Positions 17,506-63,500 of a DNA stretch of 64,000 bases are shown piece after piece. This DNA comes from Bacillota bacterium (GTDB lineage: Bacteria > Bacillota > Sulfobacillia > Sulfobacillales > Sulfobacillaceae): NCBI GenBank assembly GCA_021797515.1, contig JAJZZP010000046.1:6330-70329 (forward strand). Direction: 5' to 3'. The translations under genes and the position numbers were made by a program. Numbering within the stretch: position 1 is the first letter of the stretch; each line of letters opens with the position of its first letter. The notes beneath the pieces are model-generated. The model had not been told where the DNA came from, searched no databases, and worked only from the letters and a program-made list of their open reading frames with translations.

Positions 17506-17535
17506 AACATACCACCCGGATGGTATGTTTGTCTA
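17506..17535 (-). promoter_or_regulatory. Putative promoter with embedded palindromic operator (unit 2)
   Basis: The minus strand reads TAGACA-18 nt-TATGTT. The spacer and -10 element form the palindrome AACATACCA-N6-TGGTATGTT, a perfect 9-bp inverted repeat. It is homologous to 37317-37345. Confidence 0.5.
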
Positions 17536-17659: not shown

Positions 17660-19324
17660 TCACGCTCTTGGCGGTTGGTTGCGGCCAGGATCCGATGTCG
17701 ACTGCTGTCGCTCCTTGAGAATGCGACGCAATATTTTCCCTGTTCCCGTAGCGGGCAGCGAAGCCAGCACCTCAACCTCGCGAGGATATTTATAGTGAGC
17801 CATCCGCTCCTTGGACCAATCGATGAGCTCTTCCGGGCTGAGAGTTTCTCCAGGCTTTGCCACAACGTATGCCTTGACGACCTCTCCATGATACGGATGT
17901 GTTATCCCAATGACGGCTACTTGCGCTATTTTGGGATGATGGATGAGCAGTGATTCCACATCCTCAGGAAAGACGCTGTATCCCGAGACTTTAATCATTT
18001 CTTTGAATCGACCCTGAAAATACAGGTAACCGTCATCATCCATCTTGCCAACGTCTCCGGTCAGCACATACCCGTCTCGCAACGCTGCCGCCGTAGCCTC
18101 GGGTGCGTGCCAATATCCGGCAAACACCCCTGGATTGCGAACGGCAATCTCGCCTTGGGTATTGACAGGGCATTCTTGGCCCGTATCCGGATCGACAATG
18201 CGAATCTGGCAGCCAATAACCGGTTTCCCCACGGTACCCCAGCGAATCGCATCGACCGGCATGGCCGTGTCGCCGGTATGGGTTTCTGTCAACCCATAGG
18301 ACGACTCGTGTATCCGGCACCCGTTGGTCAATGTTTGCCATTGGTGAGCCAAGTCCTCGGTCAAGGGCATTCCAAAACTGGTACAAAGATTATGTTGTAG
18401 CGACGTCAAACGAGGGCTTTTTGTCCCCAGCCGATCGAGAATGGCACGGTTCATCGGAACCACGCTGAGCCACCAGGTGACGCCGTATTGCTCAATGGCT
18501 TGGACTGCCGCATCTGGATCAAAACGATATAGCAGTACTTCGCTGATGCCTTGATAGATGACCAAGTTCAGACCCACCAAGAGACCCGCAATGTGCGACA
18601 AAGGCATAGTCGCCAGGGTCACGTCTTTAGCGGTGACGCCGTTGGAGACGCATCCCGCAGCAGCCTTGAAAATCGCGTTGCGGTAGGTCAGCATGGCTCC
18701 TTTGGGACTGCCGGTAGTGCCCGAGGTGTAGATCATGAGAGAGACTTGGCCAATCTCCAAATCTGGCTCGGGGGGATTGGCCGGGGTAGCCGAAAGTGTT
18801 TCGATCAAATCTGCCACATTATCTAAGTGCACCCGCGATACCACCATTTCGGGAGGAACCGGCAGCGTGGGGGTTTCGGGCAAGAAGTCGCAATAGTCCG
18901 TAGCCACGACAAGCTCCACCGCCGTTTGGTCTCGTATCGATGCCAAGACAGCATAATTGTCATACGACAACACAATCACGCGCGCGCCGCTGTGGTCCAA
19001 TTGATATTGGAGCTCCCACTCTTTGAAGGCAGGGCTCACTGGCGTGACGATGGCGCCTATCTTCTGAGCCCCTAAAAAGGCTATCACGAACTGCGGGCAA
19101 TTCCCTAAATACAACGCCACCCGATCTCCAACCGCAACCCTCTGCGACGTTAAGAAGGTTGCAAAACGGTCGGTCCAATCCTCGAGTTCCCCGTACGTGA
19201 TGATTCGGCCATACCAAATAATGGCCGGCTGACCTGGAGTCTTTTGCGCGTGCATCCGCAAATACTCATGAAGGGGGCGTTCCCCCCACTCGTACAACAT
19301 ATCGGATATGGTTGGGTTTGCCAT
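17660..19324 (-). CDS. AMP-dependent acyl-CoA synthetase (ACS2)
   Basis: The motifs YTSGTTGSPKG, YGLTE, TGDVGKMDDDG and GKILRR are present. AGGAGGAG lies upstream of the start. Confidence 0.85.
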   Translation of the reverse strand: MANPTISDMLYEWGERPLHEYLRMHAQKTPGQPAIIWYGRIITYGELEDWTDRFATFLTSQRVAVGDRVALYLGNCPQFVIAFLGAQKIGAIVTPVSPAFKEWELQYQLDHSGARVIVLSYDNYAVLASIRDQTAVELVVATDYCDFLPETPTLPVPPEMVVSRVHLDNVADLIETLSATPANPPEPDLEIGQVSLMIYTSGTTGSPKGAMLTYRNAIFKAAAGCVSNGVTAKDVTLATMPLSHIAGLLVGLNLVIYQGISEVLLYRFDPDAAVQAIEQYGVTWWLSVVPMNRAILDRLGTKSPRLTSLQHNLCTSFGMPLTEDLAHQWQTLTNGCRIHESSYGLTETHTGDTAMPVDAIRWGTVGKPVIGCQIRIVDPDTGQECPVNTQGEIAVRNPGVFAGYWHAPEATAAALRDGYVLTGDVGKMDDDGYLYFQGRFKEMIKVSGYSVFPEDVESLLIHHPKIAQVAVIGITHPYHGEVVKAYVVAKPGETLSPEELIDWSKERMAHYKYPREVEVLASLPATGTGKILRRILKERQQSTSDPGRNQPPRA

Positions 19325-19341
19325 TGTTCTCCTCCTGATAG

Positions 19342-20895
19342 TTAGAATCCGGTTGGCCAGTTCGCCAATCTCCGTTCACTCTTCCAATGTCCGTTGTCCC
19401 AAATGCTCTTAAGCACCCGCACCAAGAATCGTCTTGTGGTGCGAGGATCAATGACATCGTGAATCAGATATTTTCCCGCGGCAGGATAGGGTCCGACTTC
19501 GAACTCCCACTGACTTAAGAGTTCCTGGCGAAGCTTGTCGCTATCCGGGGCGTCCGCCAGCATCTTCTTGTAGACCACGTTGATGCCTACCTCAGCGCCG
19601 GTAAAGCTGATCTCGGCCGTGGGCCAGGCCACGACAAAATCCGATCCCATGCCAGGACCCGCCATATTGCTGTAGGCAGCGCCGATACTCTTGCGAATGA
19701 CCACCGATATCTTGGGCACGGTTGACCACGCCAGGGCCTGGTTCCACACCATGATTTTCGTCGGGATTTTTTCACGCTCAGCCACACTGCCCACGCGAAA
19801 ACCAGGAATGTCGTGCAAGAAGATTAAAGGAATGTGGTACGAGTCGCACAAACAAATAAACTCGGTAGCCTTGTCCGCTTCATCTGGGCCCGCCGCCCCG
19901 GCTTGGAAAAGCGGCTGACTCGCTATCACTCCGACAGGATGACCGTCTAGCCGTGCGAAAGATGTTAAAAGAGCCCGCCCAAACCCTGCCCGCAGGTTGA
20001 AGACGCTCCCGTGGTCAAAAATCACGCTGATCAGCCTTCGCATGTCGTATGGTCTAGTCCGCTCTGTCGGTACAATGTCCGAGACTTCCTCCACCATGCG
20101 GTCTGGGGCATCATCAGTGGCAAAGCGTGGAGGCTCTGCCTCAGCGTTTTGGGGCAGGTAGCTAAAAACTGTTCGCAAGGCATGAAGACTATCGTCAATG
20201 GTTTCGCCGACATGATCGATTTGCCCTGTAATTTCCCCTTGAATTTTCACCCCTCCGAGCTCTTCCGCCCCGATTCGCTCACCCGTGGCGATTTCCAGCA
20301 TACGGGGGCCTACGGCCGCCATCGCGGTGCCACGGACTTGCGTGACAAAGTCTGAAGAGACCGCCACCCATGTGGGTCCGCCAAAGCTGTCACCTAAAAT
20401 AGCCGTCAACAAAGGACTCTGACGGCCATGTTGGAGCAGATGCATGGGCATCATGCTTTGGCTGATGCCATCGGACCCCATGCCATCGGGAATACGCAGC
20501 CCTCCTCCTTCACCCAAATGAAAGATTGGCAGACCTCGTTTGACAGCAAACTCATCCAACTGCTGCCATTTTCGCAAATGAATACGGCCTTCCGTTCCGG
20601 CCAAGACCTCACGATTGACGGCAATCACCATGACCTGGCGGCCGTCGACACTGGCCAACCCGCCAATTAATCCGTCACCCGGCGACCGATCTTTCATTTC
20701 ACCCACATCTGAGTGACTCAGCACCCCAAATTCATAAAAACTGCCCGCATCGACCAAGCGTTGCACATTGTCGCGCATTGAAACAGGATGTGCCTGCGAT
20801 AATCCCGGTTCCTGTGCATGCGTTGCTGGTCTCGTCGCGCTATAGTCTAGCGCCTGCTGCTTTCGTTTCCCTAAATCGTTGATTAGGTCATGCAT
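19342..20895 (-). CDS. Acyl-CoA carboxylase carboxyltransferase (beta) subunit family protein
   Basis: The 517-aa product has a two-lobed carboxyltransferase architecture (...GEGGGLRIPDG... and ...IFLHDIPGFRVG...). No biotin carboxylase or BCCP gene is present in the window. Confidence 0.8.
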   Translation of the reverse strand: MHDLINDLGKRKQQALDYSATRPATHAQEPGLSQAHPVSMRDNVQRLVDAGSFYEFGVLSHSDVGEMKDRSPGDGLIGGLASVDGRQVMVIAVNREVLAGTEGRIHLRKWQQLDEFAVKRGLPIFHLGEGGGLRIPDGMGSDGISQSMMPMHLLQHGRQSPLLTAILGDSFGGPTWVAVSSDFVTQVRGTAMAAVGPRMLEIATGERIGAEELGGVKIQGEITGQIDHVGETIDDSLHALRTVFSYLPQNAEAEPPRFATDDAPDRMVEEVSDIVPTERTRPYDMRRLISVIFDHGSVFNLRAGFGRALLTSFARLDGHPVGVIASQPLFQAGAAGPDEADKATEFICLCDSYHIPLIFLHDIPGFRVGSVAEREKIPTKIMVWNQALAWSTVPKISVVIRKSIGAAYSNMAGPGMGSDFVVAWPTAEISFTGAEVGINVVYKKMLADAPDSDKLRQELLSQWEFEVGPYPAAGKYLIHDVIDPRTTRRFLVRVLKSIWDNGHWKSERRLANWPTGF

Positions 20896-21001
20896 TGTGT
20901 CCTAAACCCCTCTTCCCACAGCTCTCACACTGTCCATTCTCTCGCACAGCCCACAAATGCAAAAGGTGCGCCCACTGGCAGGGTTCATTATCTTATCCTC
21001 A

Positions 21002-21575
21002 CTAATCGCCAAATATCGGCTTCCGTTTACTCAAAAATGCGTCAATTCTCTCATTGAAATCGTTCGACTGCGAAATTTCCCGCAGTTTTTCTGCGGTATA
21101 GTCCATGGCGAATCGAACCTGGGATGTTCCCCCAATAGGTTTCAATTCCCAACCGATTTAGGATCTGTGGAACGCGCACGATCAGGCACTGAAACATACC
21201 ATCAATGATCCCAGACCGCGTTTCTGGCAAGAGGAGGAGATTAATGATGCCCTTTCCTTGCGACACGACTTGATCCGCAGTGGGGCGAATTCCCACGGGG
21301 CGTCCTGCCGCTCCCCGCCGGTCGATAGCCGGAAACGCACGCGGCTTCCGCAACCCCGCATTCGATTTGGCTAATCCTCGTCTAGACTGCCAAACCCTAA
21401 AGGCCGGTACCCCTGTTTTGACAACTCTATGGGCCAATTGGTTATCGTATTGCAAGTTCATCACCACATCCCTTAATGGGGGGTCGTCAAAATCGCACCA
21501 GGTAGGAAAACGCCTACGTACATCCACGGCAGTCTCGCCGTGGCCAAGTTCCCCGAAACTTGTATGCGGTCTCAT
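21002..21575 (-). pseudogene. Enoyl-CoA hydratase/isomerase (crotonase) family gene with a frameshift and a probable internal deletion
   Basis: The ATG lies 1 nt after the E2 stop. The N-terminal part is crotonase-like (..RVVKTG.., ..KPRAFPAIDRRGAAG.., ..LLPETRSGII..). A different frame carries the typical C-terminus ..DFNERIDAFLSKRKPIFGD*. About 60 aa of the middle of the protein is missing. Confidence 0.45.
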
Positions 21576-21576
21576 C

Positions 21577-22854
21577 TTAGAGCAGACGTGTGGGTCTATT
21601 GACAACGCCCTTCAGGGTTTTGATGAACCGCCCCGCCACAGCCCCGTCCACTACCCGATGGTCGACCGTCAAGCTGTATGGCATTCGGTATCCCACAACG
21701 ACACGATCATCGCGGTCCACGGCAGCATATTTTTCCAGTGCGCCGATGCCCAAAAGACCTGTTTGTCCCCTGTTAAGAATTGGCGTCCCCCATTCTCCGC
21801 CAAAGCTGCCAAAATTGCTCAGGGTTACGGTTCCTTCGCTCATTTCGTCGGAACTCAACCGAGCCTCGCGCGCTTTAGCGGCAAGTTCAGCAAGTTCTCG
21901 GTGAATTGCCACCAACGTTTTATGGTCGGCCTCACGAATCACCGGGACTAAAAGGCCTCGTTCAGTATCCACTGCCACCCCAATATTAATGGCGCCCCAC
22001 TGCACCCATTCCTGGCCGGCCAAACGCCCATTAAGCACGGGATTGGCAGCCACGGCAACCGCTAACACTTTTACAAAAATGGCTGACCAGGATGGCCTCA
22101 CCCCCAAATATTCACGGTCCTCTTGCAAAGCCTGGAAAACCTTGAACAATGGCTCTATATCCAACCAGCCCATGAGTGTCATTTGAGCGGACTCCGCCAA
22201 GCTTTGCATCATGTTGCGGGCAATTGTCTGTCGCATGGGAGTAAGAGGCGTGCGTCCTCCCGAAGAAGGTCTAGAGTCCAGGTCAGTGGATGGTGGAGCC
22301 GGAGCCGTTGTTAGTCGAACTCGGCGGACATCGGTGGCGAGCACTTCTTGATGAGGCCCGCTTCCTTCAATTCCGCCCAAGTCAATCGCCCATTGCCGCG
22401 ACAGTGCACGTGCCAATGGCGTCGCCGGAACCAAGTGGTCAGACAGGTCCTCAACCGGGGATTTTGCGTCGTCGGCTGCTTGCAATACATCATGCCGCGT
22501 GATTCGCCGGTATGACTTCTCGGCAGGGATATTGGACAAATCTACCCCCATCGACTCGGCCAGGCGTCGCACCGACGGATTGGCCCGATGGTTCTCTTCC
22601 CTCATTGATGCGCCTTTGACTTCTGACCCTTCGAGAACATGGCCAATCACCTCGGTCATCTTAGCCCGCTGCCCTTCGGTCACAACAACGTGCAAGACCC
22701 CATCGCCAGGCGACGACAACTCGGTCACCACCTTATCCGTCTCTAAAATCGCGATAATTTCATCTTTATGCACGGGCTCACCTGGTGATTTAAGCCACTG
22801 CTGTATAACGACATCGCCGTTTTCCACCCCAATTTTAGGAATTCGAATCTCCAC
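21577..22854 (-). CDS. Dihydrolipoamide acyltransferase (E2) of a 2-oxoacid/acetoin-type dehydrogenase complex
   Basis: A lipoyl domain (..ILETDKVV..), a PSBD (..PSVRRLAESMGVDLS..) and the catalytic DHRVVDG motif are present. The start codon is GTG, with AGGAGG upstream. Confidence 0.85.
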   Translation of the reverse strand: MEIRIPKIGVENGDVVIQQWLKSPGEPVHKDEIIAILETDKVVTELSSPGDGVLHVVVTEGQRAKMTEVIGHVLEGSEVKGASMREENHRANPSVRRLAESMGVDLSNIPAEKSYRRITRHDVLQAADDAKSPVEDLSDHLVPATPLARALSRQWAIDLGGIEGSGPHQEVLATDVRRVRLTTAPAPPSTDLDSRPSSGGRTPLTPMRQTIARNMMQSLAESAQMTLMGWLDIEPLFKVFQALQEDREYLGVRPSWSAIFVKVLAVAVAANPVLNGRLAGQEWVQWGAINIGVAVDTERGLLVPVIREADHKTLVAIHRELAELAAKAREARLSSDEMSEGTVTLSNFGSFGGEWGTPILNRGQTGLLGIGALEKYAAVDRDDRVVVGYRMPYSLTVDHRVVDGAVAGRFIKTLKGVVNRPTRLL

Positions 22855-22857
22855 GAA

Positions 22858-23844
22858 CTAGCCTCCTTTAATCGCCCGATGCACAGCCTCAACAATATCT
22901 TTTTTGCCCGGCAAGATATAGTCCTCGCTGCGGCCAACGGGTATCGGGGTAAATTTACTAGTCACTCGAATAACGGGCGCATCCAGGTAGTACAAAGCTT
23001 TTTCGGCCGCCAGCGCAGCAATTTCGGCGCCGAAGCCAAATGGGGCGGGTGCTTCATGCGCCACCACCAGACGATTCGTTTTTTTGACCGAATTGAGGAT
23101 GGTGTCACTGTCTATTGGCATGGCCGTGCGGGCATCGACCACTTCAGCTTCGATACCTTCCTGGGCTAGCTCTTCGGCTGCTTGCAGTGTGTGACTGACC
23201 ATGATACCAATAGCCACAATGGTGACGTCAGAACCTGTACGCCGGACTTTGGCAACACCCAATGGAATGAGGTAATCGTTGTCGGGCACCTCGACTTTTG
23301 CCCCTAACAACGATTTTTGTTCCATAAAGATCACTGGATCCGGATCGCGAATGCTGGACTTCAACAACCCCTTTGCCTCGTACGCATCCGAGGGCATCAC
23401 AACTTTTAATCCTGGAATATGACCGAACACACTCTCTAGACTTTGCGAATGATGCATGCCTGCCCGAAATCCCCCACCGCTAAGTGTGCGCACGACAAGC
23501 GGAATGTGGACCTGACCGCCGTACATATAGCGCATTTTAGCGGCATGGTTCGCGATTTGATCCATGGCCAAAAAGATGAAATCCATGAACATAATTTCTA
23601 CGATGGGCCGCAATCCCAATGCGGCGGCACCTATGCCCAACCCGACAATGGCTTCCTCACTAATGGGGGTATCGCGTACCCGCATCTCCCCGTATTTGGC
23701 CAACAGGCCGCGCGTTAAACCAAACGCCCCCCCACTGTCGGCAACATCCTCTCCGATCAGAAAGACACCGGCATCACGGGCCATTTCTTCATCAATAGCT
23801 TGGGTAAGCGCCCGACGATAACTTAATTGACTCATCTTTTGCAT
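22858..23844 (-). CDS. 2-oxoacid dehydrogenase E1 component, beta subunit
   Basis: The product has a transketolase-like pyrimidine-binding fold (..FLIGEDV..GGAFG..RVRDTPISE..). The start is uncertain by 3 codons. Confidence 0.85.
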   Translation of the reverse strand: MQKMSQLSYRRALTQAIDEEMARDAGVFLIGEDVADSGGAFGLTRGLLAKYGEMRVRDTPISEEAIVGLGIGAAALGLRPIVEIMFMDFIFLAMDQIANHAAKMRYMYGGQVHIPLVVRTLSGGGFRAGMHHSQSLESVFGHIPGLKVVMPSDAYEAKGLLKSSIRDPDPVIFMEQKSLLGAKVEVPDNDYLIPLGVAKVRRTGSDVTIVAIGIMVSHTLQAAEELAQEGIEAEVVDARTAMPIDSDTILNSVKKTNRLVVAHEAPAPFGFGAEIAALAAEKALYYLDAPVIRVTSKFTPIPVGRSEDYILPGKKDIVEAVHRAIKGG

Positions 23845-23886
23845 ATTCCTCCATCCCCAGTTTTCCCTCATGGTGCCGTTGTGGCA

Positions 23887-24873
23887 TTATGCGGAAGTAT
23901 TTGTTGCATATACGTTGCTCAGGAGGTTTTCAGGCGTCGGATATGGGCTCGCTTTAGCGAATGCCACCGCTTCACTGAGGAGGTCTTCAAAGTTTTTCTC
24001 CAAGTCTAAGAGCTGCTGGGAGTCAAGAATCCCTTGATCGTGGACTCGCGCCCGCAGCAATGGCAAGGGATCACGCGCGCGCCAGGCCTCTACCTCATTC
24101 TTATCACGATATTCCTCGGGATCCCCCTCATAGTGTCCATGCCAACGATATGTCTTAACCTCAATCAAACTGGGTCCTTGGTTCTCGCGGGCACGTGCAA
24201 TGGCCTCTTGAAGCACCGTGTAGGTTGCATCCAAGTCATAGCCATCAACCGCAATCCCTGGCATACCGTACGCTTCCGCCTTTTTGGCAATGCGCGTTTC
24301 CTTCATTTCTTTACTCAGCGGGGTCATTTCCGAATATAAATTATTCTCGCAAATAAACACTATCGGCAAGTTCCACAACGCAGCGAGGTTCATGCTCTCA
24401 TGAAACGATCCTTGCGTGGTCGCCCCATCGCCAAACCCACACACTGCGATACCATCGGTATGGCGGTAGAGTTGGACAAAAGCCGCGCCCAATGCCAGCG
24501 GTAGGGCGGCGCCTATTACCCCGGTGCTGCCAAAGATGCCATGGCTCACGTCGGCGGCGTGCGCCTCACCCCCCACACCGCCGCAAATCCCCGATTGCCG
24601 TCCCAGAATTTCCGCAATCAGGGCCCGAGGGGGAACACCCCGCGCTAAAAATGTGGCCTTGGACCGATGATAGGGAACAATATAGTCGTGCGCTTGCAAT
24701 GTGACCCCCAGAATGACGCCGACCAATTCTTGGCCAATTCCCGAATGGAGCCAACCATCTATCTCCCCGCGGCGAAACATGTCTGCCAGGGTTTCTTCGA
24801 ATCGTCTGGCAAAATACAGATTGCGATAAAACGCAACCAACATTTGCTCATCTATCGTATGAATCTCACTCAT
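23887..24873 (-). CDS. 2-oxoacid dehydrogenase E1 component, alpha subunit (TPP-binding)
   Basis: The TPP motif ..GFGDGATTQGSFHESMNLAALWNLPIVFICENNLY.. is present. The start was set at MSEIHT, which has AGGAGG upstream. Confidence 0.85.
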   Translation of the reverse strand: MSEIHTIDEQMLVAFYRNLYFARRFEETLADMFRRGEIDGWLHSGIGQELVGVILGVTLQAHDYIVPYHRSKATFLARGVPPRALIAEILGRQSGICGGVGGEAHAADVSHGIFGSTGVIGAALPLALGAAFVQLYRHTDGIAVCGFGDGATTQGSFHESMNLAALWNLPIVFICENNLYSEMTPLSKEMKETRIAKKAEAYGMPGIAVDGYDLDATYTVLQEAIARARENQGPSLIEVKTYRWHGHYEGDPEEYRDKNEVEAWRARDPLPLLRARVHDQGILDSQQLLDLEKNFEDLLSEAVAFAKASPYPTPENLLSNVYATNTSA

Positions 24874-24928
24874 GCCGGGCCCTCCTAAAATCGATGGTGT
24901 CGGGTTGACCCCGTACGGATACGCGTGG

Positions 24929-26080
24929 TCATTGATCAAGCAGTTCCCGCGCTATGATGTGGCGTTGAATTTCGGAGGTGCCCCCGCCGATTTCAAATAA
25001 CTTGGCATCCCGCATAAATCGTTCGACAGGGAAATCCTTGGTGTAACCATATCCGCCAAGAATTTGCACGGCTTGCGTGGTGGCGCGCATCGCCACCTCC
25101 GAGCTATAGACCTTGCAGGCTGCGGAAATCAAGGTGGCGTCTGCCAGCTTGCCCTGGTCACACAAATAGGCAGATTTCAACACCATCAGTCGTGTCGCCT
25201 CGATTTCAATAAGCATGTTCGCCAATTTCTCTTGAATCATCTGAAATTGGCTGATCGAGCGTCCAAACTGCTTTCGCTCTTTGGAATACTGCAAGCTGAC
25301 GTCTAAAGCCCCTTGGGCCAATCCTAAGGCAGATGCCCCAAGAATCACCCGTTCACTGTTCAATCCAGACATCAGCACGTTCATGCCATTGTTCTCTGCG
25401 CCCACAACATGGTCTCGCGGCACTCGGCAGTCTTGGAAGATGAGTTCTCCTGTCGGCGATCCCCGCCATCCCATTTTTTCGAATTTGCGTCCTTTGGTAA
25501 AACCCGGCGACGGATAGTCCACCGCCAACAAACTGATCCCGCCCCGCCGATCATCGGGATTGGTCCGCACATAAACCAAAGCCAGAGTGGCATCAGGTCC
25601 ATTGGTGATAAATACCTTAGAGCCATTAAGGAGATACTCACGGCCGTGCTTCTCAGCCCGAAGGCTCATTGAGACCACATCGGAACCGGCTCCAGGTTCA
25701 GTCATGGCGAGGCAGCCGATGGTCTCTCCGGAACAAAGCCCGGGAAGATATTGCCGTTTTTGTTCATCGGTGGCGTTTCGCACCACGTTGTCTATCACCA
25801 AGCAAGATTGGTGCAGCAAGGTCGCCGCCGTCGACACACACACCCGAGACAACTCCTCCGCGACTATAGCCATTTCCATCACTCCGAGACCGGCACCCCC
25901 AAATTCTTCGGGGGCCGTAATCCCCAAAATGCCTAATTCTGCTGCACGTTTCCAGCTTTCTGCCGGAAATCGTTCATCACGATCAATCTCATAAGCGAGT
26001 GGTGCCACTTCTTGTTGGGCGAAAGTCCTAACTGTCTCTTGCAGCATTTTTTGCTCCGGGGTAAATTCCAGACTGATCAT
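24929..26080 (-). CDS. Canonical acyl-CoA dehydrogenase (short/branched-chain type)
   Basis: The 383-aa product reads ..[12 protein letters not shown].. and carries the C-terminal [19 protein letters not shown] with the catalytic Glu. Confidence 0.9.
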
Positions 26081-26149
26081 CGTATCTCTCCTCGTATATC
26101 AAGAGTGCCACCAACGCAGCCCTTATTGCCATGATGGTGGCCACGCCAT

Positions 26150-27208: not shown

Positions 27209-27235
27209 CCAAAACACCTCTCCCTGCTGTGTCTG

Positions 27236-28783: not shown

Positions 28784-28785
28784 GG

Positions 28786-29538: not shown

Positions 29539-29557
29539 CCTCTCTTGATCCTCGGTG

Positions 29558-30340
29558 CTAGGTGCGTATCTGTGCCAACGTCACCGGATTGCAATGTGCC
29601 CCACCATCAACGGGAATGGTGGCACCGGTGATATAGCCCGCCTGATCCGAAACCAAAAACGCCACCAAGGCCGCTACGTCCTCGGGTGTTCCAAAGCGTC
29701 CCGCTGGAATCAACTTGATGGTTTGTTCTTGCAATGGAGAAGGCAGCGCGTTCACTGCAGTCGTGCCGATCATGCCAGGCAATATGGCATTGCAGGTGAT
29801 ACCCGAGGCCGCGTATTCCAACGCGATGGTCTGCGTCAACCCTAAAATCCCGGCTTTAGATGCCGCATAGCTTGGCTGCCGATCCAGACCGTTAATCGCG
29901 GCAATGGAACTCATATTGACAATACGGCCCCATCGCTCCTGGCCCATGATGGGCAAAAAGCACCGTGAACCATAAAATACTGATGTCAAATTCACCTCTA
30001 TCTCCCGTTGCCAGCGATCAATCGGCATGTTCTCTGTCTTGGCAATATTATTGGTGATGCCCGCATTATTGACGAGAATCGTCACCGGCCCCAACCGCTC
30101 TTGCGCCAGATCCGCGATCTGTTCGAAGAATTCATATTGGGAAACATCGCCTTGACCTGCGAGCACTTCCACTCCACTGCTTTCCAGCAGGTCTTTGGTC
30201 TTCTGCAGTGAGGCCTCCCGATCTACGATAACGAGCCGGTAGCCGTCTTGTCCTAACCGCAACGCAATAGCACGCCCGATGCCCCTTGCGGCTCCCGTCA
30301 CCAAAGCAACCCGGGGATTTGATCTCGGTTTGTTTACCAT
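29558..30340 (-). CDS. Short-chain dehydrogenase/reductase (FabG-like)
   Basis: The motifs TGAARGIG, NNAG and the catalytic YAASK are present. The gene overlaps the upstream SDR by 7 nt. Confidence 0.85.
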   Translation of the reverse strand: MVNKPRSNPRVALVTGAARGIGRAIALRLGQDGYRLVIVDREASLQKTKDLLESSGVEVLAGQGDVSQYEFFEQIADLAQERLGPVTILVNNAGITNNIAKTENMPIDRWQREIEVNLTSVFYGSRCFLPIMGQERWGRIVNMSSIAAINGLDRQPSYAASKAGILGLTQTIALEYAASGITCNAILPGMIGTTAVNALPSPLQEQTIKLIPAGRFGTPEDVAALVAFLVSDQAGYITGATIPVDGGAHCNPVTLAQIRT

Positions 30341-31089
30341 GCTGAAACACCTCCATCAATAAACAGCGTTTGACCCGTGATATAGCTGGATTCATCCGAG
30401 GCTAAGAACACCACGCCTGCAGCAATTTCGTTTGGCGTCCCCACCCGTCCGAGGGGCGTTCGTGACAACACCGGATTGATAAATTCTTCACTGTTGCCTA
30501 CTAACTCGGCCACTCCGACGCCCATGAATCCTGGCGCAATCGCGTTCACACGGATGCCATGGGGACCCCACTCTCCGGCAAGTTGCTCCGTCAGTTTAAC
30601 CAACGCTGCTTTGCTGATGGCATAGGCCCCAATTCCGGCAATACCCACTTTGGCCGCCGAAGACGCTACGTTTATGATCGCTCCGTTTTTCTGAGACATC
30701 ATCGACGGAGCACACGCTTGAGCACATTCGAAGGCTCCTATGACGTTGACCTCAAACAATTTCTTTAGTCCTTCGGCCCGGGTGTTTCTCATCGGCGCGG
30801 CAAACGGGCTGATGCCCGCGTTATTGATCAGCACGTCAATACGGCCGTACCTCCCCAGGACCTGCTCCACCAGGTTGTCTATGCTCGCCCTATTCGTCAC
30901 ATCCAAACGCGCCGCCAGGACACCATCCGATGGCATTTCGCGGGCCATAGCCTCGCACGCTTCCAAATGCCGGCTAGCCACGACCACCTTCGCCCCGGCA
31001 TCTACCAAAGCGTGGGTTATGATGCGGCCAAGACCCCCGCTGCTTCCGGTAACAATCGCTGTTTTGCCAGTTAAGTCTAGCGTATACAT
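30334..31089 (-). CDS. Short-chain dehydrogenase/reductase
   Basis: The motifs TGSSGGLG, NNAG and YAISK are present. Confidence 0.85.
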   Translation of the reverse strand: MYTLDLTGKTAIVTGSSGGLGRIITHALVDAGAKVVVASRHLEACEAMAREMPSDGVLAARLDVTNRASIDNLVEQVLGRYGRIDVLINNAGISPFAAPMRNTRAEGLKKLFEVNVIGAFECAQACAPSMMSQKNGAIINVASSAAKVGIAGIGAYAISKAALVKLTEQLAGEWGPHGIRVNAIAPGFMGVGVAELVGNSEEFINPVLSRTPLGRVGTPNEIAAGVVFLASDESSYITGQTLFIDGGVSAW

Positions 31090-31095
31090 AAAAAA

Positions 31096-32676
31096 TTAAC
31101 CTCCCATGGTCCTTAATGCATCTTTAAGGACCTTGCCGCCAGGATTGCGAGGCAGAGCATCTGTAATATCCACAAATTCCGGCACCATGTACCGGGCCAG
31201 CGCGGATTGGCAATATTCCCTGATTTCCTGAGGAGTCGCGGATTGCCCAGGCTTTAGCACCACAACCGCTTTAACCCGCTCCCCCCAGACATCATCGGTC
31301 ACTCCAAAAACAGCCGCCTCCAGTATCGTTGGATGTTGGAAGAGAACATTTTCCACCTCAATCGAATAAATATTTTGCCCTCCCCGGATAATCATGTCTT
31401 TAATTCGGTCCATAACGTAAATGTATCCGTCCTCATCAATGCGCCCCACGTCACCAGTTTTCAGCCACCCATCGACAATGGTACCCTCGGTCGCACGCGT
31501 GTTGTTCCAATATCCCGTAATAACCGAAGGCCCTTTGATCAACAACTCTCCAACGCCCCCATCCCTGCTTAGGGGGTCCACACGCACCTCCATGGTGGGA
31601 GTGGCTATGCCAACCGAATCGGGCTTTGCCAAAGCTTTGTCGTCCGGCAGCATCGTCGCGATGGAAGTACTTTCCGTCAGTCCCCATACATTTCCTAAAC
31701 GCACCGCCGGAAAGCGTGTTTTTAACCGACGTATCAGATCCACAGGAGCGGGCGAGCCCCCATAGACGATATACCGCAATGACGACAAATCCCGTTCTGC
31801 CAGCAAAGGCGAGTCAAGCAAAAACCAAAACATCGTAGCCACGCCAATCGCAATGGAAATTTTTTCCTTCTCCAATTGCATAATAAAGTCGTCCGTTTTG
31901 AAATAGGGCCGGATCACACTCGTCGCGCCTGCGTACAGCATCGCCGTCAATTGCGAATTAACGGCGGTGGCGTGAAACAAGGGAGCCACCACCAGCGTCC
32001 GGTCCTCAGGTGTTACACCCATCAGTCGCGTGGCGTTCATCGCGTTGGAAATCAAGTTGCGATGACTTTGCACAGCGCCTTTAGGCACTCCCGTAGTTCC
32101 CGAAGTATATAGCAGCGCTGCGGGAGCGGCTTCATCGATTGGGGGCAACGCATAAGGACGCCGATTGGCAGCAAAGATCTCCCATGGTACCGTGTGACCA
32201 CCGCCGTCGCCACCCAGTTCCACAACAGTGCGCAGGTTCGATGGCAGGTCCTCCAAGGTTTGCCAAATGGCATGTTCCACCATCAGCAGTTTGGTTCCCG
32301 AATCATGCAGCATAAACCCCAGTTTGTCTGACTTTAGGCGAGCATTTAGCACCACCGCAATGGCACCCACTTGCTGAGCCGCATAATACCCCACGGCAAA
32401 CTCAAGTCTATTCTCCATCAAAAGTCCAACACGATCACCGGGTTGAATTCCATAGAAAGTCAACGACTCGGCGGTTTCGCGCACCTTGCGGTTAAACTCT
32501 GAAAATGTCCAGCGGACCTGGTTAAACACCAGACATTCCCGATTGCCCCATCGGGCAACACTGTCGTCCAACACCTGATTTAGGGAGGCAGGCCTGGGGT
32601 AATACATCCTCATGCGAACCCCGTTGACCGTCTCTTCCCGAATATCCGCCGATGCGTCAATCGGAATACTCTCCAT
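31096..32676 (-). CDS. AMP-dependent acyl-CoA synthetase (ACS4)
   Basis: The motifs YTSGTTGVPKG, WGLTE, TGDVGRIDEDG and GKVLK are present. The start was set at MESIPI, which has GGGGAGG upstream. Confidence 0.85.
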   Translation of the reverse strand: MESIPIDASADIREETVNGVRMRMYYPRPASLNQVLDDSVARWGNRECLVFNQVRWTFSEFNRKVRETAESLTFYGIQPGDRVGLLMENRLEFAVGYYAAQQVGAIAVVLNARLKSDKLGFMLHDSGTKLLMVEHAIWQTLEDLPSNLRTVVELGGDGGGHTVPWEIFAANRRPYALPPIDEAAPAALLYTSGTTGVPKGAVQSHRNLISNAMNATRLMGVTPEDRTLVVAPLFHATAVNSQLTAMLYAGATSVIRPYFKTDDFIMQLEKEKISIAIGVATMFWFLLDSPLLAERDLSSLRYIVYGGSPAPVDLIRRLKTRFPAVRLGNVWGLTESTSIATMLPDDKALAKPDSVGIATPTMEVRVDPLSRDGGVGELLIKGPSVITGYWNNTRATEGTIVDGWLKTGDVGRIDEDGYIYVMDRIKDMIIRGGQNIYSIEVENVLFQHPTILEAAVFGVTDDVWGERVKAVVVLKPGQSATPQEIREYCQSALARYMVPEFVDITDALPRNPGGKVLKDALRTMGG

Positions 32677-32730
32677 AATCGTCCTCCCCGATCCCTCTAT
32701 TGGGTTCTGGCGATACACTACCAGGCTACG

Positions 32731-35037
32731 TTAATAGACCTCGAATTCATCGAGCAGCGGATCATCTGCGCGTGCCACCTCACTGGCCAACAACGTCGCA
32801 CATTTTGGACAGTAAAACTCTCGGAATTCCATCGGCACATCGATAAACCGCGCCGGATCCTCGTAGTAGAATCCCGCCTGTGAGATAGGAGCCCGCCACA
32901 AAGCCAGATATTGTTTCACGTTGCCGGGAGCCGATCCCAACACCAAGCCACACTGATTGCATCCGTAGACCCGGTCGCCCCCTTTCTCGGAAACCAACGC
33001 AATCTGATCTCCAAGAATCCGTATGGCATCTCGAGAGAAATAGCGGACAGCCTGCTCTGGCGGCTTATGCGCCCGACCCAGGCGCCCCTGGCGAATTTCG
33101 CTGCGTCGGGTTTCGGTTTTCAGCTCATCAACGAGGCCGTCCCCGCCGATGACTACGCCATAGACTATGGCGGCAAACGAGCTGGTAACGATGCCTTTTT
33201 TGAGGTCGCCCAGCACCCGCTGAGGGTCACGCAAGATGGGGTCACCAAATCCGGCGGAGGATCCCCAATTCCACTCCACCACATCGGATAGGCCGACTGG
33301 TATAGGCAGTCCTTTGTTCGTACATAACTCGAGCTTCCCACTCAATTCTTCTAATGACTGCGGCACACGCCCCCCGGCCATGGCACTCCGTACCGAACTG
33401 TTATGCATGATGCGCGCATTGTTGCAGGAACCAGGATACCCTCCCGCAATCCCTGATGTCTTGGGCACCCCTTCCGCCGTTGCCACCGCCACCGCAAGAT
33501 AAGACCCATCGTAGGGAACATACCCCACAAGGCCTCCGTTACCCCCGCGGGTTCGGCCTGCGCCCCCCGAGTTGATCTGCTCTCGGCGATATAAATAGAG
33601 GACGGGCCATATGGATTCGTAATATTCCACGTTGGGTCCTCGCCCTTCGGGAATCCAGAAACTTCCGTCGCCCACCACCCCGTCAGTCTTGGGAGTAGCG
33701 CCCCGGGTTCCAATCATTTGGTCCGTTAAGGTGACAATGGCTGGCTTGCCGTATTGGTCGAGCCCGGCCAATAGGGTGCTGCCCCATTGAGCGGGCCCGG
33801 TGGTCAGCGCAAAGTTATGCAGCGTTTCAGAACAGGAGAGCATTTTGGCTACCACCGCGTTAGCCATAGCGATGGCCAATTCCGTGGCATAAATACCAGC
33901 GGGACTAACCGCCGCTCCAAAATCTGGACACGTCATCGTGCCGGGGCTCGGTTCAAATACACAATGGCGCGCGACCGCTCCTATAAATGCGGTAAACCCG
34001 CCTAATGCCCCCATCTGCTCGGGAAGCATCAAGACGTTGAGAACTCCTAAAATGGCGCCTCTCCATCCAGCAAAAGGCAAATTCGCCGATCCCTTTTGCG
34101 GATCAGTCCCTTCGTTTTGAAATATGAGTTGGTCGCCGCGTTTGGTGAGCGTCATCATCCATTGGTACACACCACGGTCGCCCGTGACCGCGACTTCTTG
34201 ATACGAGCGTTCTCGCCAAGTCCCATCAGGTATGAGCTGCAGCCGCTCTAACAGCGCGACTTCACTGGCATGGATAATACGACGCATGGCCGCTTTAACC
34301 ACAGGAGCGCCATAACGTGTGACCAACTCTAAAATCCGGTCCTTCGCCACATTATTCCCAGCCACCCCCGCCCTAAGGTCCAGCGAGAGGGCCGTGGGCA
34401 ACCTCGATTGGCGCTTGTAAAGATCCTCGATTTGCCGCACGATGCGCCCTCGTTCAACGATTTTTATCGGGGGAAAACACGGAGGGTCGTGAAAGATGTC
34501 AGCCGCATCAGGGCAAAAACTTCCAGGCGTTGTGCCTCCCACGTCTGCTTGATGCATAGCATTGGCGACCCAGCAAAAGAGTCTGCCCTCGACAAAAACT
34601 GGACACAACAGCCCGACATCTGGTTGATGCGCCGTGCCCACCCAGGGATCATTTTGCAAAAACATATCGCCGTCAAAGATCCCCGGATCCTCACTGCGGT
34701 TTTCCATGGTCCATTTCACCATCAAATCCATCATGCCAGACATATACTGCAAATGCGGCCCAAAGAACACAAAGTCCGCATCCTCAGTCAAGATCACGGT
34801 TTGAAAGTCACGCGTCTCCAGAGTAATGGGAGACACTGCCAATTTTTCGATAGTCTTGCCATGTTCGAGGTTTATATTTTGCAGTGCGTGCCGAATGACT
34901 TCGAACGTGATCGGGTCCACTTGATCCACTTGTTCTGTGTGTAACGGCAGGCTGTCGTGGATGTTTAAGTGGTCTCCCGGAATATAGGAGTGTTCCACGC
35001 CATTCCAATAGTGCGGTCCATCTGGTACTGTGGCCAT
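32731..35037 (-). CDS. Hydantoinase B/oxoprolinase-family subunit (acetone-carboxylase alpha-like) with a C-terminal gamma-subunit-like zinc ribbon, paralog 2
   Basis: A HyuB core is followed by the tail YGCNQCGLVLG...EFREFYCPKCATLLASEV. The start is ambiguous between the TTG at 35046 and the ATG at 35037. Confidence 0.85.
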   Translation of the reverse strand: MATVPDGPHYWNGVEHSYIPGDHLNIHDSLPLHTEQVDQVDPITFEVIRHALQNINLEHGKTIEKLAVSPITLETRDFQTVILTEDADFVFFGPHLQYMSGMMDLMVKWTMENRSEDPGIFDGDMFLQNDPWVGTAHQPDVGLLCPVFVEGRLFCWVANAMHQADVGGTTPGSFCPDAADIFHDPPCFPPIKIVERGRIVRQIEDLYKRQSRLPTALSLDLRAGVAGNNVAKDRILELVTRYGAPVVKAAMRRIIHASEVALLERLQLIPDGTWRERSYQEVAVTGDRGVYQWMMTLTKRGDQLIFQNEGTDPQKGSANLPFAGWRGAILGVLNVLMLPEQMGALGGFTAFIGAVARHCVFEPSPGTMTCPDFGAAVSPAGIYATELAIAMANAVVAKMLSCSETLHNFALTTGPAQWGSTLLAGLDQYGKPAIVTLTDQMIGTRGATPKTDGVVGDGSFWIPEGRGPNVEYYESIWPVLYLYRREQINSGGAGRTRGGNGGLVGYVPYDGSYLAVAVATAEGVPKTSGIAGGYPGSCNNARIMHNSSVRSAMAGGRVPQSLEELSGKLELCTNKGLPIPVGLSDVVEWNWGSSAGFGDPILRDPQRVLGDLKKGIVTSSFAAIVYGVVIGGDGLVDELKTETRRSEIRQGRLGRAHKPPEQAVRYFSRDAIRILGDQIALVSEKGGDRVYGCNQCGLVLGSAPGNVKQYLALWRAPISQAGFYYEDPARFIDVPMEFREFYCPKCATLLASEVARADDPLLDEFEVY

Positions 35038-35065
35038 AGTGCTCAATTACCTCCTTTCGTCGTCC

Positions 35066-37159
35066 TTACAACTGCAAAATGAAATTGCCGAATGCATCAC
35101 GCGACAGGGACTGCCCAGGCTGTATTACGATTGCCGTATCCGGCAATTCTACAATCGAAGGCCCTGCCACGCGGACGCCCACCCCGAGTGCTAGCCCATC
35201 AAAAATCTCTGTGGTCACAAATTGTTTCTGATCATGCCAGTAGACATCGCGAGGAAGTTTTCGCGCATCGTCTAGACTTCCCTGGGAGTCATAGAGGGTT
35301 TTGAGAACCATTCCTCTGGTGCCAATAGCCTCGCATCGCACCGATACCAACTCGATCCCAGCTCCTAACACGCGGGCTCCCGGTCCATAAAGTCGCCTAT
35401 AGGAATCCTCAAAATTCCTCACAAAAACCGCGACGTCTTCGGGCGACCCAAATCGCCCTTGCGGCAACTCGACTTCCACTTCATGCGTTTGTCCTTGATA
35501 CCGTAGTTTTCCGTAATTTTGAAACATGACATTGTCATCTACGATGCCTTGAGACCGAATTGCTTCACCCGCCACCGATTCCAATTCGTTAAATGTGGCG
35601 TTTAAAATTCCGGGATCAAATGGTGCAGTTAATAACAGTTCCCGCTCTCTGATGTCCTTAAAATCGGCAAAAGCTGCCCCAAATGCGGACCATACCGACG
35701 AGGTGTCTCCGGCCGGAATCACGACCATTTTTGCCCCCAAAACCTGAGCGTATGAGCCGGCATGAAGTGGTCCTGCACCACCATAGGAGAAAATGGCAAA
35801 ATCTCGGGGGTCATATCCGCGGGCAATGGTTTCTTGGTGTAAAAGATCCGCCATCCGTGCATCGGAAATGGTTAATATGCCTTGGGCCACTTCGGTTGTC
35901 GATAGACCTAATTGATTGCCTAATTCAGTTAGCACGCCCATCGCTAGATCTTTTTGGATCCGGATACTTTCCCCAAACTTGGTATTATCAGGAATATACC
36001 CCAAAAAGACATTCGCATCGGTCACGGTGGCATTTTTCCCGCCACGGCCGTAACAGGCAGGCCCCGGAAAGGCGCCCGCACTTTGCGGCCCCACGCGAAG
36101 AGAGCCGCTGGCTTGATCCACCCAAGCCACGCTGCCGCCGCCGGCACCTATGGATTCAATATCTATTTTAGGTATGGTGTAATGAAATTGATTGATGACA
36201 TTGACATCGCTCACGGTTGTCTTATTATCCGCTATGATCCCGACATCAAACGAGGTGCCACCCATGTCTGTAGCAATCACATTCGGATAATTCAATTGAC
36301 GGGCGAGAAACTGAGAGGCGGTAATCCCAGCAACGGGTCCCGAGTCAAGCGTTATAAGCGGCAATTCCCTTGCCTGTTTGACAGATACGGCACCCCCTCC
36401 ACACTGCATAATGAGAAGGTTAGAGGTAAAACCCCGTTGGCGTAAGTCGATCTCGACACCATCTAAATATCGGGAGACTTTTGGCCCAATATACGCATTG
36501 ATCACTGCGGCACTGTAGCGTTCATATTCTCCCAACCTGGGAGACACCTCATGAGAGGTGGTGACAAAGATGTGGGGCGCCACTCGATGAACAATTTCTT
36601 TAGCGAGAAGCTCGTGCCGCGGATCTTTGAAGCTCCATAAAAAGGCCACCGCGATAGCTTCGCATCCTTGTTTGATCAAAAACCTTGCGGCATCCTCTAC
36701 TTGTGCTTGGTTGAGCGCAACCACTTCCCGCCCCGCATAGTCAATTCTCTCATCAATTTCGACAATCATATCGTAATCAACTAAGGGCTCTGGTTTGCGG
36801 GTTGTGGTCACGGAGAAGAGTTGCTCAACCGGAAGGCCTGCTGTACGACCCATGCCGCGCTGCATCAACAGACCGTCCTTGTGTCCCCGAGTGGTAATCA
36901 AGCCGACCTTAGCACCGTGTAATTCGATCATAATATTCGTGGCGATGGTGGTCCCCAAAACTATGGTGTCGACTTCCCGAAGAAATCCGGTGAGATCACG
37001 TCCAGTCTTTTTCGCGATGCGGCCCAATCCCTCTAAAACGCCTTGGTTGAAATCGTCTGGTGTAGTAGGAGCCTTCCCTATCTCAAGATTTCCCTCGGCG
37101 TCGACCGCCACACAATCAGTAAACGTGCCGCCAATATCTACTCCAACCTGATACGTCAT
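35066..37159 (-). CDS. Hydantoinase A/oxoprolinase-family subunit, paralog 2
   Basis: The motifs MTYQVGVDIGGTFTDCV and IATDMGGTSFD are present. GGGAGGA lies upstream of the start. Confidence 0.9.
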   Translation of the reverse strand: MTYQVGVDIGGTFTDCVAVDAEGNLEIGKAPTTPDDFNQGVLEGLGRIAKKTGRDLTGFLREVDTIVLGTTIATNIMIELHGAKVGLITTRGHKDGLLMQRGMGRTAGLPVEQLFSVTTTRKPEPLVDYDMIVEIDERIDYAGREVVALNQAQVEDAARFLIKQGCEAIAVAFLWSFKDPRHELLAKEIVHRVAPHIFVTTSHEVSPRLGEYERYSAAVINAYIGPKVSRYLDGVEIDLRQRGFTSNLLIMQCGGGAVSVKQARELPLITLDSGPVAGITASQFLARQLNYPNVIATDMGGTSFDVGIIADNKTTVSDVNVINQFHYTIPKIDIESIGAGGGSVAWVDQASGSLRVGPQSAGAFPGPACYGRGGKNATVTDANVFLGYIPDNTKFGESIRIQKDLAMGVLTELGNQLGLSTTEVAQGILTISDARMADLLHQETIARGYDPRDFAIFSYGGAGPLHAGSYAQVLGAKMVVIPAGDTSSVWSAFGAAFADFKDIRERELLLTAPFDPGILNATFNELESVAGEAIRSQGIVDDNVMFQNYGKLRYQGQTHEVEVELPQGRFGSPEDVAVFVRNFEDSYRRLYGPGARVLGAGIELVSVRCEAIGTRGMVLKTLYDSQGSLDDARKLPRDVYWHDQKQFVTTEIFDGLALGVGVRVAGPSIVELPDTAIVIQPGQSLSRDAFGNFILQL

Positions 37160-37316
37160 GACAGATTCCTCCCTGCCTCACTCTTCTCGTGGCGGAACCA
37201 AATCGGTATATCCTGAATTCTTTTGGCACTGTTACGTAAACCGCCAAAATTTCCCCGTGCCAGCCCTGACAAAGCCTATTCATCTACCAATCTATCCAAT
37301 CAATGCTAACAAATTT

Positions 37317-63468: not shown

Positions 63469-63500
63469 AACAATCATCACGCTCCCTTATTTAATGATGG

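Follow-up and report, generated by a model that had tools for sequence, protein, structure and literature searches.

A compact acyl-CoA gene cluster headed by a putative γ-fused, ketone-carboxylase-type enzyme pair in a Sulfobacillus-related bacterium from mine drainage

The stretch analyzed here (the window) comprises 64,000 nucleotides of contig JAJZZP010000046.1 (assembly GCA_021797515.1) from a member of the Sulfobacillaceae, whose nearest named relatives are metagenome-assembled genomes (MAGs) of Bacillota and Sulfobacillus and whose setting is mine drainage. Between positions 17660 and 37159 its minus strand carries a tightly packed unit of genes, mostly for acyl-CoA metabolism, headed by two proteins of the hydantoinase/ketone-carboxylase superfamily, HyuA2 and HyuB2, the second of which ends in a fused Zn-finger that points to a ketone carboxylase. 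The open reading frame (ORF) listing together with Pfam and NCBIfam scans gives 14 intact ORFs and one dead stretch, which bears out the count of an earlier note on this DNA, the pseudogene of that note being two gene remnants. The intergenic spacing ranges from −29 to 69 nt, with a sole exception of 155 nt ahead of the carboxyltransferase (CT) gene, and the entire unit is syntenic in two related MAGs, the congener G003 and G040, at 55–86% amino acid identity; the description of a single co-directional unit with short or overlapping gaps therefore stands as well. The stretch is found nearly word for word in contigs from runs of three mine-drainage or mine-tailings studies, which argues that the assembly is sound. 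An Rfam scan of the whole window returned no riboswitches or other RNAs, and look-ups by exact protein brought up no record.

The window genes listed in this paragraph all lie on the minus strand. A TetR-family regulator (38103–38762; TetR_N and TetR_C_24 in Pfam), with a probable true start at Met28 (about 38681), precedes the unit. HyuA2 (35066–37159; 697 residues; Pfam Hydant_A_N, Hydantoinase_A and Hydant_A_C) is the nucleotide-binding subunit, and HyuB2 (32731–35046; 771 residues; Pfam Hydantoinase_B and Acetone_carb_G) is the catalytic subunit, to which a γ-type Zn-finger is fused as the last ~135 residues (32734–33138). These are followed by Lig2 (31096–32718), an AMP-forming acyl-CoA ligase; two short-chain dehydrogenases/reductases (SDRs), the glucose/gluconate-dehydrogenase-like SDRa (30334–31089) and the FabG/acetoacetyl-CoA-reductase-like SDRb (29558–30340), which among solved structures comes closest to FabG and acetoacetyl-CoA reductases; Unk250 (28786–29538), a four-cysteine protein of 250 residues; Lig3 (27236–28783), a further AMP-forming ligase that scores above the NCBIfam PRK06187 subfamily cut-off; a Zn-dependent alcohol dehydrogenase (Zn-ADH; 26150–27217) of the threonine/sorbitol/butanediol dehydrogenase branch; and ACAD2 (24929–26080), a short/medium-chain acyl-CoA dehydrogenase (ACAD) of the AcrC/Bcd-like kind. 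E1α (23887–24939) and E1β (22858–23871) are of the thiamine enzyme type found in pyruvate dehydrogenase (PDH) and acetoin dehydrogenase, E1β scoring above the NCBIfam PDH E1-β subfamily cut-off. With the adjoining E2 acyltransferase (21577–22854), which has lipoyl, E3-binding and catalytic domains, the E1 and E2 parts of a 2-oxoacid or acetoin dehydrogenase are all present. Beyond the dead stretch (21005–21605) lie a PccB/MmdA-like CT (19342–20895) and Lig4 (17660–19324), the AMP-forming ligase with which the unit ends; the CT-Lig4 order is also kept in G003 and G040. Lig2, Lig3 and E2 were assigned with Pfam, and the SDRs, Zn-ADH, ACAD2, E1α, CT and Lig4 with Pfam and NCBIfam. The G040 ortholog of Lig4 (L022, 5374–6980) is broken into two frames at about 5745/5748, through a frameshift or a sequencing error.

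Downstream, a second HyuA/HyuB/ligase triad (15973–10075) repeats the gene order of the first and has diverged deeply from it, as the note had said, the copies being 36% (HyuA), 29% (HyuB), and 34.5% (ligase) identical. The note had also drawn attention to four AMP-forming ligases lying close together; there are indeed four, within 22.6 kb, but such a density is not exceptional in a 4.39-Mb genome that carries 46 of them (nine on contig C22), along with 21 ACADs, seven E1 sets, seven CTs and about 13 thiolases. The host genome is that of a catabolic generalist. Genome contig C126 carries yet another HyuA/HyuB pair, the third, which is more distant.

The dead stretch is explained by comparison with G003, which has an intact LplA-like lipoate ligase (270 residues; PF21948) and a crotonase (262 residues; PF00378; PaaF/short-chain type by NCBIfam) between E2 and CT; G040 has the crotonase at this place and no LplA-like gene. 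In the window, a 184-residue ORF (21051–21605) aligns with residues 29–169 of the G003 LplA-like protein at 38% identity (E 3e-24), as against 65–86% for the genes that flank the dead stretch, and ends ahead of the KIAGTA motif, while 21005–21109, in a different frame, encode the final 35 codons of a G003-type crotonase at 71% identity. The LplA-like remnant is joined out of frame to the crotonase end, so a single deletion of ~1.2 kb removed the 3′ part of the LplA-like gene together with most of the crotonase gene. The same deleted form, without indels, is present in contigs of independent mine-drainage runs, and the pseudogene is thus real rather than an assembly artefact. A 305-nt contig of a divergent strain, from one mine-tailings run, covers 21102–21160 and departs at 21102 toward lower coordinates; it may derive from an undeleted LplA/crotonase allele.

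Among solved structures, HyuB2 is best matched by the HyuB-type subunit of acetophenone carboxylase (Apc; chain 5l9w_A, deposited as the δ subunit; 5e-47), followed by the α subunit of acetone carboxylase (1e-36) and the β subunit of caprolactamase (7e-32). HyuA2 is roughly equidistant from caprolactamase α (6yra_A, 3e-113), N-methylhydantoinase, and the HyuA-type subunit of Apc (γ chain, 5l9w_B, 1e-109). Residues D80, H140, D143 and H165 of HyuB2 align with E89, H150, D153 and H175 of XaAC, which are the Mn ligands of acetone carboxylase (PMC5543143); since they are shared with lactam hydrolases, they do not discriminate between the two classes. The tail of HyuB2 is more informative in this respect. 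Its match to Acetone_carb_G (PF08882; residues 680–770) is borderline (21.5 bits; cut-off 21); the tail contains the motif CNQC-46 residues-CPKC (C696, C699, C746 and C749), with the spacing of Cys22, Cys25, Cys75 and Cys78 in the small subunit of Apc, and none of these four cysteines varies among 11 aligned homologs or among 20 aligned family tails. An AlphaFold (AF2) model of the last 135 residues has a predicted local distance difference test score (pLDDT) of 83.7, and its only significant Foldseek matches are four γ chains of acetone carboxylase (Acx) and the Apc small subunit, each with a probability of 1.00 and a TM-score of ~0.57; the sixth match falls sharply to E 0.16. A small Zn-finger γ subunit is specific to ketone carboxylases, hydantoinases and oxoprolinases being without one (PMC5214803, PMC13677872). 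The structure of Apc shows its HyuB-type subunit wrapping a C-terminal arm around the small subunit (PMC5214803), which makes a C-terminal γ fusion structurally natural. Because the fused tail, as modeled, folds like the γ subunit of acetone and acetophenone carboxylases only, the evidence favors a ketone carboxylase over a lactamase, in agreement with the class proposed in the earlier note; ketone carboxylation itself is a predicted activity. In the ORF listing and Pfam results, no α′- or ε-like subunit of Apc adjoins HyuA2/HyuB2, and the HyuA gene is single.

The scores against NCBIfam equivalog models (ApcC, 376 against a cut-off of 1500; ApcD, 181 against 1500; CapA, 520.8 against 1000; CapB, 140.6 against 1000) place HyuA2 and HyuB2 outside every characterized subfamily. 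The fusion is nonetheless common: 941 of 8,000 scored candidates match HyuB2 at E ≤1e-10, and 101 of the best 120 are 760–780 residues long (family length ~770 residues). Its members range over Bacillota, Actinomycetota, and at least one haloarchaeon, and include proteins from Paenibacillus, Bacillus, Jeotgalibacillus, Conexibacter, Baekduia and Haladaptatus. Given its presence in Paenibacillus, Bacillus and Jeotgalibacillus, the γ-fused HyuB is not unusual for Bacillota as such, as the note had supposed such a cluster to be, although its distribution near the host is patchy (six of 40 related genomes). A partial γ-tailed paralog in the host genome (C97:3734–4999) is 35% identical to residues 354–770 of HyuB2. 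Full-text literature searches led to the standard papers on Acx, Apc and caprolactamase and to none on a γ-fused HyuB or on the present combination of genes; the β-γ fused carboxylase subunit is an undescribed element. To our knowledge, ATP-dependent ketone carboxylases have been described for few substrates only (acetone, butanone, a few longer aliphatic ketones and acetophenone) and in three- or five-subunit forms only.

Alternatively, HyuA2/HyuB2 might open a ring by ATP-dependent hydrolysis, as caprolactamase, oxoprolinase or N-methylhydantoinase does; the ring could be that of a lactone, and Lig2 would then activate the opened acid. The best matches of HyuA2 in NCBIfam (520.8 bits) and in the PDB are to caprolactamase α, the metal ligands of HyuB2 suit either class, and a lactone would give 4-hydroxyacyl-CoA-type intermediates such as are handled by the neighboring operon. 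We nevertheless consider a hydrolase unlikely: the fused γ Zn-finger is a subunit that hydrolases lack (PMC5214803, PMC13677872), HyuB2 is closer to the HyuB-type subunits of Apc and Acx than to CapB, the cluster has no aminotransferase or deaminase for an amino acid product, and the cut-offs for both CapA and CapB are missed.

Unk250 has no match in Pfam or NCBIfam. It has 235 homologs at 50–60% identity in several phyla, with the invariant motifs LAATWRAHS, PCGSGQRL, YCxHCxxMNE and CxWYxYK, and its family amounts to 1003 clusters among 1.84 billion representatives. Its AF2 model is of good quality by the usual scores (pLDDT 87.3; predicted TM-score 0.80), yet no such fold was returned from the PDB by Foldseek (best E 0.24), and a profile search against PDB sequences was also empty. 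Unk250 thus represents an undescribed, well-conserved family with no match to a described family or solved structure. Long forms of 360–370 residues (L023 10001–11098 and L025 10001–11107; proteins P0241–P0282) have a duplicated N-terminal helical half, of which forms of 440–560 residues contain two or three copies. Pfam finds no domain in these, nor in any of ten long or fused members scanned, and fusion partners therefore give no Rosetta-stone hint of function. The family is present in just two of 401 genomes of the host phylum and so has no phylogenetic depth there. Its neighborhoods were compared in 80 metagenome loci, 28 of them at least 8 kb long. An SDR, of the SDRb type wherever the type was checked, shares the locus with Unk250 in 23 of these 28 and is almost always its immediate neighbor; the closest partner of Unk250 is thus an SDR rather than HyuAB. 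A role for Unk250 as a γ or ε subunit of the carboxylase was considered and ruled out, the protein occurring mostly without HyuAB.

Comparison of the unit with loci from other organisms defines an 11-gene core consisting of two ligases, two SDRs, Unk250, Zn-ADH, ACAD, PDH/acetoin-type E1α, E1β and E2, and the crotonase. Versions without HyuAB occur in Amycolatopsis ultiminotia (TetR_C_24-ACAD-E1α-E1β-E2-Zn-ADH-Unk250-E3-SDR-ligase), Alkalihalophilus pseudofirmus (ligase-enoyl-CoA hydratase-ACAD-E1α-E1β-E2-SDR-SDR-DUF169-Unk250-Zn-ADH) and Oceanobacillus salinisoli (APH kinase-small protein-alcohol dehydrogenase-ACAD, an lva-like set, then SDR-SDR-Unk250). A Solirubrobacteraceae MAG (L028) has HyuAB: E1α-E1β, with E2-Zn-ADH on the opposite strand, are followed by HyuA-HyuB(γ)-ligase-Unk250, and SDR, TetR_C_24, ACAD and APH genes lie nearby. 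Several of the host proteins are closer to those of related clusters than to paralogs in their own genome. Zn-ADH is 54–57% identical to its Amycolatopsis and Alkalihalophilus matches and at most 28% identical to its own paralogs; the corresponding values are 70% (Alkalihalophilus) and 57–59% (actinobacterial) against 53% for ACAD2, 58–60% (core clusters) against 49.5% for E1β, and 48–53% against 40–43% for SDRa and SDRb, the SDRa matches in the Alkalihalophilus and Oceanobacillus clusters being at 50–52%. Lig2 has a 44.5% match in the Amycolatopsis cluster, compared with at most 38% for its own paralogs.

The order HyuA-HyuB-ligase-Unk250-SDR recurs in soil Actinomycetota. It is colinear in five of the 28 metagenome loci of at least 8 kb, four of which have a divergent upstream E2 + Zn-ADH; the arrangement with upstream E2 and Zn-ADH is seen in L028 and in soil loci L075, L082, L087 and L104, and in L079 the sequence ends before the upstream part. 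In other lineages (Oceanobacillus, Solirubrobacteraceae and metagenome loci), an lva-like kinase and ACAD adjoin Unk250. The earlier note's picture of a cluster built around its HyuAB pairs has to be given up, since Zn-ADH, ACAD, E1β, SDR and Unk250 recur above paralog level without HyuAB in Amycolatopsis and Alkalihalophilus (a Lig2-type ligase also in Amycolatopsis). By these comparisons the core of the unit is conserved and mobile; HyuAB is an entrance that can be absent, and CT-Lig4 forms a tail specific to the lineage. The scarcity of the core in the host phylum (two of 401 genomes) and of HyuB2 among close relatives (six of 40) fits acquisition by horizontal transfer.

Upstream of hyuA2 an operator-like palindrome, AACATACC-N8-GGTATGTT (37317–37340, minus strand), overlaps the spacer and −10 element of a TTGACA-17-TATGTT promoter (37345–37317), and a second copy (17506–17529, minus strand) lies in the promoter of the downstream operon, which comprises lva-like genes and the other HyuAB pair (HyuAB1). 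The exact sequence AACATAC-N10-GTATGTT occurs twice in the 4.39-Mb genome (0.016 expected), both times at these operon promoters. In G003 the palindrome and −35 box are kept upstream of hyuA, and the TetR gene, 76% identical, holds the same position. Paenibacillus naphthalenovorans, whose HyuA-HyuB(γ) also neighbors an SDR and E1αβ, has a copy with one mismatch upstream of hyuA, one- and two-mismatch palindromes being found upstream of hyuA and of thioesterase/TetR_C_24 genes; the host TetR is ~30% identical to TetR_C_24 proteins encoded within the Paenibacillus, Amycolatopsis and Solirubrobacteraceae clusters. Because exact operator copies are confined to the two promoters, and in agreement with the linkage of an lva-like kinase and ACAD to Unk250 elsewhere, the two operons of the window very probably form one regulon, with TetR as the predicted ligand of the palindrome. 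Nothing lva-like follows Lig4 in G040, which indicates separate transcription units joined by regulation.

A third operator-like palindrome, with two mismatches, lies on contig C31 (73724–73747), directly upstream of a third, same-strand set of ACAD1-like, SDR, APH-like and SDR genes located in 62713–64000 of the window and beyond it (C31, ~69.0–73.75 kb); as many as three operons of this contig may thus belong to the regulon. In G003 a copy with two mismatches (L014, 1807–1830) stands between the intact crotonase and CT, where CT-Lig4 may have its own regulated promoter; the 155-nt gap before CT in the window retains no operator-like site. Between the tetR stop and the hyuA2 start is a gene-free gap of 943 nt (37160–38102; ~330 nt in G003), in which Rfam gave no matches and reading of the ORFs gave nothing with homologs. 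A 12-nt leader box with three copies in the genome (0.5 expected) is not kept in the leader of the congener and was set aside as chance or weak.

The unit need not encode a single pathway: it could be a mosaic of co-located, co-regulated modules (HyuAB entrance, Unk250/SDR/ACAD/E1E2 core, and CT-Lig4) with different substrates. The occurrence of the core elsewhere without HyuAB and without CT would fit this, as would the operator-like copy between crotonase and CT in G003, which suggests a separate sub-operon, the richness of the genome in such genes (ligases, ACADs, E1 sets and CTs alike), and the decay of part of the block. A mosaic seems improbable to us, however, considering the very short gaps with some overlapping reading frames, the preservation of the full order in three genomes, the recurrence of HyuAB together with E1/E2, Zn-ADH, SDR and TetR_C_24 in distant phyla, and the single operator type that serves both operons.

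Two multi-subunit enzymes of the unit lack partners within it, as the note's terms "E3-less" and "orphan carboxyltransferase" had implied. No E3 gene is present in the window, the six Pyr_redox_dim genes lying elsewhere in the genome (for example at C17:6243, beside another E1), whereas the Amycolatopsis version carries E3 within the cluster. CT likewise has no biotin carboxylase or carrier in the cluster. One biotin carboxylase (Biotin_carb_C; C58:19767–21122) is all that the genome has for its seven PccB-like CTs, and small biotin carriers of the EAMKM/ESMKM type adjoin three other CTs (contigs C58, C69, C134 and C181 are concerned) rather than CT 19342–20895. The missing parts may be supplied in trans, from the candidate E3 genes and the single biotin carboxylase.

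The remaining alternatives, a decaying leucine/branched-chain pathway (branched-chain 2-oxoacid dehydrogenase [BCKDH], isovaleryl-CoA dehydrogenase, methylcrotonyl-CoA carboxylase [MCC] and methylglutaconyl-CoA hydratase) or an acetoin/2,3-butanediol system made of E1/E2, Zn-ADH and SDR, strike us as very doubtful: the set ACAD-E1-E2-crotonase-CT, the dead crotonase and the absent biotin subunit fit the first, and the kinship of Zn-ADH with (R,R)-butanediol dehydrogenase and weak matches of both SDRs to the meso-butanediol dehydrogenase model fit the second, but the E1 subunits are PDH/acetoin-type and not BCKDH-type (E1α 2e-52 to PDH and 5e-37 to BCKDH), which weakens the leucine reading, CT is nearest MmdA/PccB (2e-81) with the β subunits of geranyl-CoA carboxylase (GCC; 8.5e-51) and MCC (1.4e-48) far behind (~1e-48 to 1e-50), the G003 crotonase is of the PaaF/short-chain type, all equivalog cut-offs are missed, and neither pathway explains the ligases, Unk250 or HyuAB. 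Also in favor of the acetoin system, the lipoate ligase gene of the cluster is reminiscent of a lipoate-metabolism gene in the aco operon of Pelobacter.

The reading we prefer, to which we give about an even chance, is that of a TetR-repressed catabolic operon built from three layers: a horizontally mobile conserved core that would process its substrate as CoA thioesters and has lost its crotonase here, along with an LplA-like gene, by one deletion; a 5′ add-on encoding a two-polypeptide ketone-carboxylase-type enzyme (HyuA and the HyuB-γ fusion); and a 3′ add-on encoding the PccB-like CT and a fourth ligase. An inducer, probably an acyl-CoA of the pathway or the substrate, would free the palindrome from TetR at both promoters. 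Zn-ADH or SDRa would then oxidize a secondary hydroxyl to a ketone, HyuA2/HyuB2-γ would convert the ketone with ATP and bicarbonate to a β-keto acid, and Lig2 would activate this acid to the β-ketoacyl-CoA (3-oxoacyl-CoA), which SDRb with Unk250 would convert further. From there ACAD (once aided by the crotonase) and E1/E2, drawing on an E3 encoded elsewhere, would lead to short acyl-CoAs, one of which CT would handle with the genome's one biotin carboxylase and a carrier, both supplied in trans. Given the link to 4-hydroxyacyl-CoA kinase modules, the substrate may be a keto or hydroxy acid, or a ketone from which a 4-oxo- or 4-hydroxyacyl-CoA arises. The simpler chain of the earlier note (alcohol to ketone, carboxylation, CoA ester, then β-oxidation) stays a proposal; it leaves E1/E2, CT and Unk250 unexplained, and thiolase is absent from the window and related loci.

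Several observations weigh against the layered-operon reading. With the crotonase and lipoate ligase lost, part of the route is no longer encoded in the unit. Nor is a plain β-oxidation spiral encoded within the cluster, since thiolase genes are absent from the window, from contig C31 and from the 95 related loci searched (885 kb in total). The HyuAB pair is itself ambiguous in part: HyuA2 scores slightly higher against caprolactamase α than against Apc, the metal ligands of HyuB2 are common to lactamases as well, and both proteins fall well short of every NCBIfam equivalog cut-off. In other organisms the core does without HyuAB, so that carboxylation may serve as a side entrance and not as the main step; moreover, the identity of E1β to the HyuAB-linked soil loci (48–51%) is not above the level of its own paralogs. 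The metatranscriptomes of the same study contain none of the sampled words of the stretch.

A bolder extension of this reading is possible, and we put it forward tentatively, as more doubtful than the operon model itself. Unk250 would be a new metalloenzyme or an essential partner, with an unseen fold, and together with the FabG-like SDR would perform an undescribed (oxo/hydroxy)acyl-CoA transformation that may replace the C–C cleavage step otherwise lacking in these thiolase-free clusters. Many soil Actinomycetota would have this pathway, and Bacillota would have it here and there. The γ-fused HyuAB, as a ketone carboxylase of a new and minimal kind with two polypeptides, would feed it with keto acids or with ketones other than acetone.

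The uncharacterized β-γ fusion family suggests that biotin-free fixation of CO2 onto ketones extends to further substrates and has a simpler architecture, and the conserved TetR-regulated gene set around the Unk250 family is a concrete target for pathway discovery. Cultured carriers (Alkalihalophilus pseudofirmus, Oceanobacillus salinisoli, Amycolatopsis ultiminotia and Paenibacillus naphthalenovorans) allow experiments. For mine-drainage ecology, the unit adds to the view of Sulfobacillus-like organisms as broad scavengers of organic acids and ketones.

Among known systems, comparison was made with apcABCDE-bal of Aromatoleum aromaticum and AcxABC (PDB 5L9W, 5SVB and 5M45) and with CapAB of Pseudomonas jessenii (PDB 6YRA). 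Like Apc and Acx, the present system has HyuA- and HyuB-type subunits and a four-cysteine Zn-finger γ, the Apc HyuB-type subunit being the best solved relative of HyuB2, and has alcohol dehydrogenases in the same predicted pathway. The benzoylacetate-CoA ligase gene (bal) comes after the apc genes (PMC5214803), as Lig2 directly follows HyuB2. Where the known enzymes have three or five polypeptides, the present one would have two, γ being joined to the C-terminal end of HyuB; the α′ and ε subunits of Apc have no counterpart, identities are low and all equivalog cut-offs are missed; and the putative carboxylase genes are embedded in a far larger acyl-CoA operon with E1/E2, ACAD, CT and Unk250. 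Caprolactamase and other lactam hydrolases belong to the same superfamily, CapA being the top sequence match of HyuA2 and the His/Asp metal residues of HyuB being kept, but lactamases have no γ, HyuB2 is farther from CapB than from Apc/Acx, and the unit has no amine-handling enzymes.

The atu (acyclic terpene) and liu (leucine) clusters of Pseudomonas reportedly contain the TetR-type AtuR, two SDRs, an ACAD, a crotonase, a carboxyltransferase and a ligase, and on that account resemble the unit in its TetR, SDRs, ACAD, ancestral crotonase, CT and acyl-CoA ligase. They differ in that the unit has no biotin carboxylase subunit, its CT is PccB/MmdA-like and not GCC/MCC-β-like, and its E1/E2, Zn-ADH, HyuAB and Unk250 have no atu/liu counterpart. 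The likeness to lvaABCDE, the levulinate system of Pseudomonas putida, lies directly downstream of the unit, where an APH-type kinase, a small partner, an atypical ACAD and a ligase stand under the same operator; no lva-specific gene lies inside 17660–37159, and the link is one of regulation and neighborhood, not of membership. Set beside these systems, the present one combines two known kinds, an operon for a putative ketone carboxylase and a catabolic cluster for acyl-CoAs.

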